Shown piece after piece: positions 32,359 to 36,329 of a stretch of DNA of 64,000 nt. How positions within the stretch are numbered: the first letter of the stretch is position 1; each line of letters starts with the position of its first letter. This stretch comes from Roseibacillus sp. (GTDB lineage: Bacteria; Verrucomicrobiota; Verrucomicrobiia; Verrucomicrobiales; Akkermansiaceae), in NCBI GenBank assembly GCA_051251855.1, contig JBPOGI010000005.1:1-64000 (forward strand), in the 5' to 3' direction. The translations under genes were made by a program, and so were the position numbers. The notes under the pieces were generated by a model. The model was not told where the DNA came from and ran no database searches. It saw nothing but the letters and a program-made list of their open reading frames with translations.

Positions 32359-33657
32359 ATGTTTGAGGTAAGCGAAAAGCCCGACCTAGTGGAGCGGGCG
32401 ATGTTAGTGGGGTTCTACTTTAAGAGTGACGAGGAAGAGGAAGCGCGTGCCCTGCTACTAGAGCTGGAGGAGCTGGTGGACACGCTAGGAATCGGTGTAG
32501 TGGGGATGGAGCTGATTCGAGTGCGAGCCCAGCACAAGGCCTTCATTTGTGGCACGGGAAAGTCGGATGAGGTGATTGAGATGGCACGCGAGAAGGAGTG
32601 CGATTGTCTCATTATCGACAATGGACTTTCTCCTTCGCAGCAGCGTAATTGGGAAGGAAACGCTGGGATCACTGTCATCGACCGTGAGGAGGTGATTCTC
32701 GATATCTTTGCGAGTCGGGCTTCGACGAAGGAAGCTCAGCTGCAGGTGGAATTGGCTCGGATGGAGTATGCTCTTCCTCGAATGGCTAAGATGTGGGGTC
32801 ACCTTGACCGTGAGGGTGGCGGCGGCGGCGGAAGTGGGGCGGCTTCCCGGGGTATGGGTGAGCAGCAGATCGAGATCGATCGGCGACTGGCTCGGAATAA
32901 GATTTCTCGTATTAAGAAAGAGCTGGAAGTGGTGAGACGCCAGCGAGCGACACGGCGCAAGGACCGGGACCGCATGGACGTGGCGGCGGCGGCGATTGTG
33001 GGCTACACGAATGCAGGGAAATCGACTTTGTTAAACAAGCTTTCGGGCTCCGATGTTTTTGAGGCGGACCAGCTGTTTGCCACTTTAGATCCGACAACCC
33101 GTGGGATTGAGCTTCCAGGTGGGCAGCAGCTTCTACTTACTGATACGGTCGGGTTCGTGCGGAATCTACCTCACCGGTTGGTGGAAGCCTTTAAGTCGAC
33201 CTTGGAAGAGGCGGTTTTGGCTGACTTTTTGATTCATGTGCTGGATGCGAGTGACCCTGGGGTGGAGGCGTTCTATCAGACCACTGAAGCGGTGCTTGCG
33301 GAACTGGGGGCGGGAGATAAGCCCACTCTGACAGTTCTCAACAAGGTGGATCGATTGGGAGAGGGGGATAAGTTGACGTGGTTGCGCGAGCGTTTTCCAG
33401 GGGCGATCGAGATTTCTGCTAAGACAGGGTTTGGAATTGAGAACCTCATCCAGGCGGCCGAGAACCAGCTGGCGGACCGAGTTTTGCGTCGGCTTTACCG
33501 GATTCCACAGAGTCGCGGCGATATTACCAATGTTCTTCACAAAGATGGCAAAGTGATTGCTACAGATTTTGAAGGAAATGACGTTCTCGTCACGGCGGTT
33601 GTCTCGCCGACTCTTGATGGACAATTACGAGATTTCTTGGAAGAAAACGCTGACTAG
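32359..33657 (+). CDS. hflX: GTPase HflX
   Basis: IDREEVILDIFA, LQVELA, GYTNAGKSTL, LFATLD, DTVGF, NKVD. Confidence 0.96.
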   Translation: MFEVSEKPDLVERAMLVGFYFKSDEEEEARALLLELEELVDTLGIGVVGMELIRVRAQHKAFICGTGKSDEVIEMAREKECDCLIIDNGLSPSQQRNWEGNAGITVIDREEVILDIFASRASTKEAQLQVELARMEYALPRMAKMWGHLDREGGGGGGSGAASRGMGEQQIEIDRRLARNKISRIKKELEVVRRQRATRRKDRDRMDVAAAAIVGYTNAGKSTLLNKLSGSDVFEADQLFATLDPTTRGIELPGGQQLLLTDTVGFVRNLPHRLVEAFKSTLEEAVLADFLIHVLDASDPGVEAFYQTTEAVLAELGAGDKPTLTVLNKVDRLGEGDKLTWLRERFPGAIEISAKTGFGIENLIQAAENQLADRVLRRLYRIPQSRGDITNVLHKDGKVIATDFEGNDVLVTAVVSPTLDGQLRDFLEENAD

Positions 33658-33793: not shown

Positions 33794-34795
33794 ATGAAAA
33801 CTTTCTTCTCCCTCCTCTTTTTTCTGACGTCATTTGCCTCCGCTACTGACAAGACCCTAGGTACCGAAAGGGATGCTGCTGTACGTTTGCAGATTCTGCT
33901 GGACCAAAAAATGTTCGGGCCTGGCTTCATTGACGGCAAACCAGGGACGTTTACCACTCGAGCCATTGAAGCCTATAATCGGGCGATGGGGCGTGATGAG
34001 GGTGATCGCACTATTATCCAAGCAGAGGCAGATGATTTGGTGACGAATACCTTTGTGACGACGACCGTGCCGTCGGTGGCGAAAAAATTTGTGAATCCCA
34101 AGCTGCCCTACAAGAGGGTTGAGCAGGCGGAAGAGCGGGCACTCACTTATCGGAGCTACTATGAATTTATGGCTGAGCGCTATCACACCTCGGAGAGTGT
34201 GCTTTATGAGTTGAATGGCAAAAACAAGACGTGGGGAGCGGCACCTGGGCGAACTTTGGTGGTGCCGAATGTGACGCCCTTTAAGATCGAGGATATCAAG
34301 CCCGGGCGCATGTATAAGAGTGGCGAAGGCGCTCTCGGCAAACGGAAGGTGATTATCGACACCAAGGAGCGGCAGATTCAGATTTATGAGATTCTTGATA
34401 AATCGATGGCGAGTACTGGGGCCTTGGCGGTGAGCGGCGAGGACGCGTATCGCTTGGTCGCCAGTTTTCCGACCACTCCTGGACAGGAAAAGTTTATCCA
34501 TCGCGGCACTTGGGAGCTGCGTAATACGATCGAGTGGCCGACTTGGCGCTACGATAAGCAGCTTTTGCAGGAAGGGAAGCGGGGCAAGGAAGCTCTCAAT
34601 ATTCCTGGGGGCCCGAACAATCCGGTTGGTGTTCTCTGGGCAGGATTGAGCAAAAGTGGAATTGGAATCCACGGCACGGATAGTCCTCGCACGATTGGCC
34701 GCGCTCGGAGTTCCGGCTGCTTCCGCCTTGCAAATTGGGATGCAGCTCGCATTCCGCTTGTGATTCGCCCAGGCGCGAAGGTGATTGTGAAGTAG
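33794..34795 (+). CDS. L,D-transpeptidase (YkuD) family protein
   Basis: GPNNPVG...GIHGT...SSGCFRL catalytic motif; signal peptide. Confidence 0.9.
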   Translation: MKTFFSLLFFLTSFASATDKTLGTERDAAVRLQILLDQKMFGPGFIDGKPGTFTTRAIEAYNRAMGRDEGDRTIIQAEADDLVTNTFVTTTVPSVAKKFVNPKLPYKRVEQAEERALTYRSYYEFMAERYHTSESVLYELNGKNKTWGAAPGRTLVVPNVTPFKIEDIKPGRMYKSGEGALGKRKVIIDTKERQIQIYEILDKSMASTGALAVSGEDAYRLVASFPTTPGQEKFIHRGTWELRNTIEWPTWRYDKQLLQEGKRGKEALNIPGGPNNPVGVLWAGLSKSGIGIHGTDSPRTIGRARSSGCFRLANWDAARIPLVIRPGAKVIVK

Positions 34796-34814: not shown

Positions 34815-35027
34815 CTACTTAAATAGTCCTGCTGCTTCTCCCTCGATGGGAAAACCGCCAGTGCGCTCTTTCTTGTAAAGCAGTTCGCCGTCTTTGCGGA
34901 TTTCGAAGATGCCTCCTTGGCCGGGAATGAGGGTGATTTCCTCGTCGCTGACGGTCTTGATTTCAGCCGACACACGGTCGGCTTCGGGGAGGTAGTTTCA
35001 TTTAGAGCAGTATTCGATCTCGATCAT
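34815..35027 (-). CDS. SelW/Rdx-family selenoprotein (CxxU; in-frame TGA 35000-34998), absent from the ORF track
   Basis: Manual translation: MIEIEYCSK-U-NYLPEADRVSAEIKTVSDEEITLIPGQGGIFEIRKDGELLYKKERTGGFPIEGEAAGLFK, 70 aa. Confidence 0.9.
34965..34983 (-). promoter_or_regulatory. Putative bacterial SECIS element of the SelW-like gene
   Basis: Perfect AGCCGAC-CGTGT-GTCGGCT hairpin starting 14 nt after the TGA. Confidence 0.75.
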
Positions 35028-35077
35028 GGTGAGGAGAAGATGTGGGGCTTTCTGGATTTGGCCAATGAAAAGTTTGC

Positions 35078-35500
35078 TTACCGATGGGACTGCTCTTGCT
35101 GACTGATGAGGCTGGAGTTGATGGTCTCGAGGTCGTTGATGCGCTTGGCAAACGCTCCGTAGCGGACACAGAGCCCGAGGAGCCCGACGATGTAACTGAG
35201 TAGGCTGGCTGCAGTGAGGAGTGCGCCAGCCCCAGAAATCAGAGAATAGGCTCCTAAGTTACCTGCACCTGAGCTCGCGGAGGGTGATGAGGCTATCGAT
35301 GCTGCGATGCTTTGGAAGAGAAGGTAAGAAGCGACGACGGCAGTGGTAGTGCCCAGAATCAAACCGATGCCTCCTCCAAGCATCATCCAAGAGCCCCAAA
35401 ATTTCTTACCGCGATGGGCGATGATTGCAGAGGCGATCATGGCAATCGCGACCAAGACCGCGAGGACCGTAGAGATGAGCGCTGGTATCATAGAAGTCAT
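35078..35500 (-). CDS. Small 3-TM membrane protein (paralog family)
   Basis: Likely start ATG 35500 (MTSMIPAL); AHRG..FWG motif; C-terminal KRINDLETI. Confidence 0.7.
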   Translation of the reverse strand: MTSMIPALISTVLAVLVAIAMIASAIIAHRGKKFWGSWMMLGGGIGLILGTTTAVVASYLLFQSIAASIASSPSASSGAGNLGAYSLISGAGALLTAASLLSYIVGLLGLCVRYGAFAKRINDLETINSSLISQQEQSHR

Positions 35501-35547
35501 AGAACGATTGAACTGGATTCGGTAGTAAAGGGCAAGTTTTGCTCTTG

Positions 35548-35925
35548 TTAGGCAGAGTCCGAGTGGCGTTGGAGCTCGTCGCGCTCGGCTGCGAGCTGGA
35601 GGGCGAGTTTTTCGAGGTCGGCGGTTTCTTGGCTGAGAGTTTTCCAGTGCATGGTCATGAGGAAAGCGCCAATCCCCAAACTGAAAGCTGAGAGAGTGAT
35701 GAGCCAGCCAAAGAGCGAGAGAATCGAGCCCATGGAGTGAGGGGCGCCAATGAAGCTCAACGCTAAGAGGGCAACAACGGAAAGGAAGTAGCCGCAGATA
35801 GAGATAAGGACGGTCCACGTTCCTTTCGTCGCAAAGCCTCGATGGGCGAGGATGGCGGCAAAGAGAATGAGAAGTCCTAGTCCGAATGGAATGAGGAGAG
35901 CCAGAAGGTTGATAAAAGGGATCAT
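35548..35925 (-). CDS. Small 3-TM membrane protein (paralog family)
   Basis: AILAHRG...TW; C-terminal ETADLEKL. Confidence 0.7.
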   Translation of the reverse strand: MIPFINLLALLIPFGLGLLILFAAILAHRGFATKGTWTVLISICGYFLSVVALLALSFIGAPHSMGSILSLFGWLITLSAFSLGIGAFLMTMHWKTLSQETADLEKLALQLAAERDELQRHSDSA

Positions 35926-36329
35926 GAACTAGGGCTGTTTGGGGGGAGGTTGCGTTGAGCCTGTTCTTTTGCTGCGGCGAGGGCGGAGGTGATTTCGAGA
36001 AGTTCCGAGCGCCGTTTGCCAGTGGCGCTCCAACGGGTGCAGAAGCCAAAGAAGGCAATCGGATAGAGTATGGCTCCGAGTATGAACAAAAAGTATGAGA
36101 TGATGAGCAGGCCGAAAGAGTGGGAGGAGCTTTGATCAGTCAGGAAAAACCAAAGTCCGAAGGCGACCATGATGGAGGTGGAAATGACCAAAAGAGTGGC
36201 GCCATATAAAAGGAGCCTGATTGCCCAAAATTGGGTTCCTTTTTGGGCTTTGAGTGCTCCAATGAAGAGGAGAACGACTGTGCTGAGGACTCCTGTTAAG
36301 AGAAGGGAAATGGTGAGCTGTTCGTTCAC
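35922..36329 (-). CDS. Small 3-TM membrane protein (paralog family)
   Basis: AQKGTQFWA; C-terminal RRSELLEI; ATGA overlap with the next gene. Confidence 0.7.
   Translation of the reverse strand: MNEQLTISLLLTGVLSTVVLLFIGALKAQKGTQFWAIRLLLYGATLLVISTSIMVAFGLWFFLTDQSSSHSFGLLIISYFLFILGAILYPIAFFGFCTRWSATGKRRSELLEITSALAAAKEQAQRNLPPNSPSS

Follow-up and report, generated by a model that had tools for sequence, protein, structure and literature searches.

A putative SelW-like (Rdx family) selenoprotein gene with an in-frame TGA and a conserved SECIS-type hairpin in Roseibacillus

The window, a 64,000-nucleotide stretch of Roseibacillus sp. DNA, carries on its minus strand at 34815..35027 a putative gene for a SelW-like selenoprotein of the Rdx family. 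As the preliminary description had proposed, the minus-strand frame that opens with the ATG at 35027 runs for 70 codons (70 aa), contains a single TGA (codon 10, 35000-34998) and closes with a TAG at 34817-34815; its translation reads MIEIEYCSK-U-NYLPEA...LIPGQGGIFEI...DGELLYKK...GGFP. The TGA (34998..35000, minus), which is kept in orthologues, supplies the U of a CxxU motif (C7-S-K-U10). The first residue of this motif, Cys7 (35007..35009, minus), closes strand 1 in the structural model, and both motif columns are invariant in 19/19 aligned orthologues. Long hydrophobic stretches are absent from the protein, in which hydropathy over 11 residues peaks at 1.19. The gene had been said to be missing from the standard ORF list, and indeed the sole entry there is a 52-aa C-terminal piece with a GTG start (34973-34815; translation table 11), which begins downstream of the TGA and lacks the active site. 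The sequence comparisons described below confirm that the small gene is real.

The convergent neighbor encodes an L,D-transpeptidase with a YkuD domain (33794-34795, plus), an arrangement that we saw by eye in six of eight genus relatives. Also convergent with the Rdx gene is an HflX-type GTPase gene (32359-33657, plus; domains GTP-bdg_N, GTP-bdg_M, and MMR_HSR1); both of these neighbors are ordinary genes. On the other side lie three tandem small hydrophobic ORFs on the minus strand (35500-35078, 35925-35548, and 36329-35922, encoding approximately 140, 125, and 135 aa), which overlap or nearly touch their neighbors (35078-36329 overall) and produced no Pfam or NCBIfam match over the cut-off. 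Contig C6 has another tandem set (336837-337597) that two of the three match. Similar membrane ORFs precede the Rdx gene in five of eight genus relatives (by eye), and linkage to either the transpeptidase or the membrane ORFs was absent in other genera. We rejected an operon with the upstream membrane genes: the arrangement is kept in at most three-quarters of the genus and not in other genera, and the 50-nt upstream gap contains a promoter-like motif.

This putative promoter (35037..35065, minus), identified by eye, has a hexamer starting with TTG, a 17-nt spacer, and CATCTT, and ends 9 nt before the ATG. A TTG hexamer, a 16- to 17-nt spacer, and CA-N3-T ending 7 to 11 nt before the ATG recur in eight of nine genus members (by eye); a promoter scan returned 0 sites at its threshold. 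The motif suggests that the gene may have a separate, leaderless or nearly leaderless transcript. Across the genome, the same promoter-like motif is slightly more common 6 to 8 nt before long ORFs (27/2,547) than at other distances, a spacing hinting at leaderless transcripts.

With U read as C, the product scored 61.7 bits against the Rdx profile PF10262 (cut-off, 22.6) and 43.9 bits against TIGR02174 (cut-off, 34.2), which bears out the original family assignment, and the gene is the single Rdx match in the whole genome. The best-scoring model was NF041051 (SelTWH_Campy, a 70-position equivalog), covering residues 2 to 68 with an E value of 6.9e-22. All 19 orthologues in the protein alignment (a 20th, L036, was excluded because it is cut by a contig end) match this model. 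Since the score of 77.5 bits lies below the curated cut-off of 88, we did not file the gene in that equivalog. Seven solved sequences matched, the best being Atu0228 (2fa8; E value, 2.4e-11). The expectation that Cys-containing homologues would align at the TGA also held: in 2fa8, 3dex, and 2ojl, the residue opposite the TGA is the second of the two Cys in CxxC.

An AlphaFold2 model built from the 19 orthologues (mean pLDDT, 95) predicts the order strand, helix, three strands, and two short helices and superimposes on 2fa8 with a TM score of 0.87 to 0.88. Together with 2fa8, five further solved Cys-type bacterial SelW-related chains (3dex, 2ojl, 2oka, 2p0g, and 2obk) match in sequence (E values, 2.4e-11 to 4.5e-6) and in modeled structure (TM, 0.80 to 0.88; rmsd, 1.2 to 2.3 Å). 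These six are 103 to 108 aa long compared to 70 aa here, and 2fa8, 3dex, and 2ojl have CxxC, unlike the CxxU of the present protein. The model predicts a thioredoxin-like Rdx fold with high confidence. Mammalian SELENOW (mouse; PDB 2npb) and MIEN1/Rdx12 (PDB 2ljk) have the same fold as the model (TM, 0.66 and 0.74, respectively). In eukaryotic selenoprotein genes, the SECIS sits in the 3' UTR. As described in the parts of PMC10650576 that we consulted, SELENOW and MIEN1 share CxxU and a tGxFEI(V) consensus, which GGIFEI at residues 38 to 43, in the C-terminal half, matches. The partners reported there for the two proteins are glutathione and the eukaryote-only 14-3-3 proteins and are therefore not directly transferable to the bacterial protein.

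The preliminary description had made selenocysteine decoding depend on selA, selB, and selC being present in the genome (completeness, 95%). A profile search of the genome found all four sel genes over their family cut-offs: selA (455.6 bits), selB (331.1 bits), selD (375.9 bits), and a tRNA-Sec gene (selC; 63.9 bits, anticodon TCA), which ARAGORN also calls tRNA-SeC. The selD gene (G000:C7:93151, plus; L010) has an in-frame TGA of its own and is another selenoprotein gene, with a candidate SECIS (5-bp stem, loop GGUCU) beginning 27 nt past this TGA. A few other tRNA genes stood out. Ten of them lie within 1.5 kb (G000:C10:114076-115599, plus), most of these duplicating anticodons found elsewhere in the genome; such tRNA arrays often accompany mobile elements. 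ARAGORN also called a second tRNA-Trp(CCA) of an unusual 87 nt (G000:C1:686953-687039) and a tRNA-Ala(GGC) of 99 nt (G000:C6:778943-779041), which may be false calls or atypical tRNAs.

The hairpin claimed to follow the TGA was found as described: a 7-bp stem without mismatches, capped by a 5-nt loop (34965..34983, minus; read 34983-34965), begins 14 bases past the TGA, with a folding energy of -11.5 kcal/mol. The second loop position is G (34975), followed by U, and the loop lies 21 nt past the TGA. Four constraints on bacterial SECIS elements are summarized in the consulted parts of PMC13188914, and the hairpin falls within each: a loop of 3 to 9 nt (here 5) on a stem of 4 to 16 bp (7), a G within the first two loop positions (position 2), 16 to 37 nt between UGA and loop (21), and an energy of -7.5 kcal/mol or lower. 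Of the 175,622 TGA triplets on both strands of the genome, 18 (0.010%) are followed at the identical distance by a Watson-Crick stem of 7 bp with a 5-nt loop. Such a stem-loop with G at loop position 2 lies 8 to 30 nt downstream of 104 triplets (0.059%), and a 7-bp stem of any kind lies within that range for 1,517 (0.86%). Folding of the 61-nt stretch was unremarkable against shuffles (z = -1.09; 28/200 shuffles equally good), and random synonymous codons for the same protein yield all six inner pairs in about 8% of cases. On these last two measures the hairpin alone is weak, and comparative support was therefore needed. A scan of the genome for other same-register hairpins with a nearby Cys returned two additional matches (on C1 and C6), and we discarded the one on C6, which lies opposite a 405-aa ORF, as a chance match.

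We compared 61 genomes, namely, the source genome and 60 relatives. The gene was matched in 20 of them, including all eight other genus members, at 21 places. The preliminary description would have given way had homologues carried neither Cys nor Sec at the TGA position, but 20 of these places have TGA at the codon and the remaining one, a second copy in G019, is of the Cys type. In a separate sample of 301 genomes from the phylum, TIGR02174 matched in 40, 4 with TGA (the source included) and 36 without a stop. We found selA in 30 of the 61 genomes, among them all 20 TGA-type genomes; 10 selA-bearing genomes had no match to the gene, and neither did any of the 31 in which selA was not matched. 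As related genomes are not independent samples, we attach no probability to this co-occurrence. Against the eight genus orthologues, pN/pS was 0.09 before the TGA and 0.23 after it, a pattern of purifying selection in the aligned codons on both sides of the TGA.

The hairpin is kept in the orthologues as well. Its six inner pairs are intact in 17 of 20 and five are intact in the other 3, with 91.4% of cells paired compared to 80.3% in shuffles. The 20 orthologues contain 15 double-sided changes in four pairs, and the covariation score (0.319 versus 0.115) was reached in 0/500 shuffles. Slid registers gave at most 51.4% paired cells, and RNAalifold independently recovered the same 6-bp helix. 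Synonymous change is reduced within the hairpin codons (pS, 0.28, versus 0.68 after them). The outermost (seventh) pair is broken in 9/20. For the Cys-type control, 19 of 31 loci could be parsed and 12 were left out, as their sequences did not match the motif expression. No stem with five or more pairs was found in the 19 (0/19), and one of those left out, L041, has only 2 pairs. The loop G is present in 19/19 controls too, owing to a Trp codon at that position, and by itself does not discriminate. By these comparative measures the hairpin is under selection, and it is its conservation, not the single structure standing alone, that makes it convincing.

We also searched with a DNA pattern that includes the TGA and runs across the motif as far as the second base of the stem; it matched at least 120 stretches. 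The titles of the matches listed include Gemmatimonadota, Planctomycetota, Acidobacteriota, Verrucomicrobiota, Desulfocapsaceae, and others, and all 118 usable loci among them match the protein profile. Of the six inner pairs, these 118 listed loci have six in 59, five in 46, and four in 13. Thus, 105/118 have at least five pairs, against 36% expected by synonymous recoding, and 59/118 have all six, against 7%; slid registers were seen in 0 to 3 loci. Loop position 2 is G in 118/118 listed loci. The residue encoded there is Ser, Gly, or Arg, with AGT as the codon in every case of Ser (53/53). The commonest loop among the listed loci (39/118) is GGUCU, the same as after the selD TGA of the source genome. 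The second-outermost pair is broken in 44/118 of the listed loci; with the outermost failing in 9/20 orthologues, the widely kept core is therefore 5 bp. Cys-type genes of the phylum have a C-terminal GH(S/A/I)(D/E) tail that occurs in 0/118 TGA-type loci among the matches listed; short Cys-type forms of 72 to 80 aa also exist (among the best 150 of 1,763 library relatives). A protein-to-DNA scan of named genomes with the protein alignment returned 0 relatives, as expected from patterns that use Cys codons.

The best explanation for these observations, to which we assign a probability of about 0.93 on the sequence evidence, is that the gene is functional, stands alone, and encodes a cytoplasmic SelW-like (Rdx) selenoprotein of 70 residues. 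The proposal that the TGA is read as selenocysteine has held up, given the sel machinery in the genome and the homologues with TGA or Cys at the position, and codon 10 is almost certainly decoded in this way. A ribosome would arrive at the UGA of codon 10 and receive Sec-tRNA(Sec), made by SelA and SelD, from SelB sitting on the hairpin 14 nt farther along; translation would then proceed to the UAG at codon 71. Decoding of UGA10 by SelB and SECIS, as outlined for bacteria in the consulted parts of PMC1794560, is strongly supported by the comparative sequence data. Lying within the coding sequence of helix 1, the hairpin would restrict the codons usable there. In the predicted fold, a minimal Rdx domain, Cys7-x-x-Sec10 would sit on the loop that joins strand 1 to helix 1. 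The Sec10 selenolate would attack an oxidized substrate (a disulfide in a protein, or a peroxide), and Cys7 would resolve the intermediate to a selenenylsulfide. By analogy with the family, the product is most likely a cytoplasmic Cys7/Sec10 redox protein, and general redox catalysis is the probable role given selenocysteine decoding. Re-reduction by the thioredoxin system seems likelier than by glutathione, because a thioredoxin reductase scored over the cut-off in the genome and no gshB did; gshB was the single glutathione-route gene searched.

A genuine selenoprotein might instead serve in selenium handling (as a carrier, a buffer, or a sensor feeding SelD) or in metal binding, which we consider unlikely. 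Some genomic context points that way. At six loci with Verrucomicrobiae, Verrucomicrobiales, or Chthoniobacterales titles (L073, L088, L094, L101, L110, and L114), tRNA-Sec and a selD-like ORF (recognized by eye) come after the gene in the same orientation. The tRNA-Sec lies between or beside the gene and the selD-like ORF in 6/6; the tRNA scan covered 12 of at least 120 loci, these six picked for the selD link and another six that were without tRNA-Sec. In the selD of L094, the N-terminal motif carries Cys instead of a TGA. In the source genome, however, selC (C1), selD (C7), and the Rdx gene (C9) lie unlinked on three separate contigs, and the six linked loci probably represent one related group. 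The remaining neighbor clusters among the 118 listed loci are lineage specific, with no partner gene conserved across phyla. Given selenocysteine decoding, roles beyond redox catalysis and selenium handling or metal binding are about equally unlikely. Still more speculative is a more specific version, in which the short TGA-type Rdx proteins are a dedicated part of selenium metabolism, as minimal, separately transcribed carriers or sensors that hand selenium to SelD or report its supply. The linkage to tRNA-Sec and selD at the six loci could conceivably be the genomic trace of this. If true, this would be the first function for the most abundant marine bacterial selenoprotein family.

The other alternatives deny the selenoprotein itself. 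The gene might be nothing but a 52-aa protein initiating at the GTG at 34973, the upstream part being irrelevant; this is what the table 11 listing shows, and the protein library holds N-truncated entries of a similar kind (e.g., P0036 and P0051). This is very improbable, as the constraint on codons 2 to 9 is stronger than that on the remainder, an in-frame ATG stands 9 to 14 codons upstream of the TGA in 20/20 orthologues, and, judging by the model, the GTG-start product would lose strand 1 together with the active site. Reassignment of TGA to Trp (code 4) or Gly (code 25) throughout the genome, which would make the residue something other than selenocysteine, has some precedent: UGA-to-Trp reassignment is reported for two Verrucomicrobiota endosymbionts in the consulted parts of PMC13462651, and 47 of the best 150 of 1,763 library relatives have W at this position and 4 have G, compared to 76 with C and 2 with another residue (21 unparsed). 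Yet TGA is a normal stop in this genome, where it terminates 288 of 1,345 ORFs of at least 400 aa. Of 50 tRNAs, moreover, only tRNA-Sec has a TCA anticodon and no Trp or Gly tRNA does, and in orthologues L023, L031, L034, and L037 the same gene is closed by a genuine TGA stop. The library relatives with W or G (within P0002-P0151) probably derive from TGA-type genes translated with codes 4 and 25, so that, as far as the protein entries tell, gene-caller artifacts are the simplest account of them; reassignment has next to no probability. A nonsense pseudogene, in which a Cys codon mutated to TGA in a dead gene, would need just one base change (TGC or TGT to TGA) and would fit the absence of the full-length protein from the protein collection, but it is just as implausible with the same TGA in 19 related genomes at identities down to about 39% and in at least 120 loci across phyla, purifying selection downstream of the TGA, and a gene found solely in genomes with selA.

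The selenoprotein gene that we favor is an ordinary one: its family of bacterial redox selenoproteins has been known for a long time and is very common. With the bacterial SelW-like proteins (PF10262 Rdx; TIGR02174 CXXU_selWTH) it shares CxxU, the G-x-F-E-I motif, and the Rdx fold, as well as the in-frame UGA, the downstream bacterial SECIS, and Sec machinery in the genome. It differs from them in no categorical way, and its 70 aa place it at the short end. In the portions of the literature that we consulted, a 2006 survey counted 10 SelW-like genes (PMC1794560), an ocean survey listed 427 SelW-like sequences as the most abundant family (PMC2398784), and a 2026 review gives SelW-like proteins with PF10262 and CxxU as "predicted with high confidence" (PMC13188914). 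The functions of such proteins are described as largely uncharacterized in the consulted parts of two reviews (PMC13188914 and PMC10650576), and the matches listed in our literature search included no relevant functional study of a bacterial SelW-like protein. We found no paper on the family in Verrucomicrobia in a search of main texts; such genes may still appear in survey tables. A collection of 15 billion sequences contains neither the full-length protein nor the 52-aa fragment. This absence, and W or G at the selenocysteine position in about one-third of the best 150 of 1,763 relatives, makes database counts of the family unreliable.

The finding corrects one annotation and adds one lineage to the known distribution of the family. 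It leaves knowledge of selenocysteine decoding itself unchanged, and for tests of what bacterial SelW-like proteins act on, this host offers little advantage over others. The gene does offer a clean, small case of an RNA signal constraining a protein, with only NGN codons at one helix position in 118/118 loci among the matches listed.
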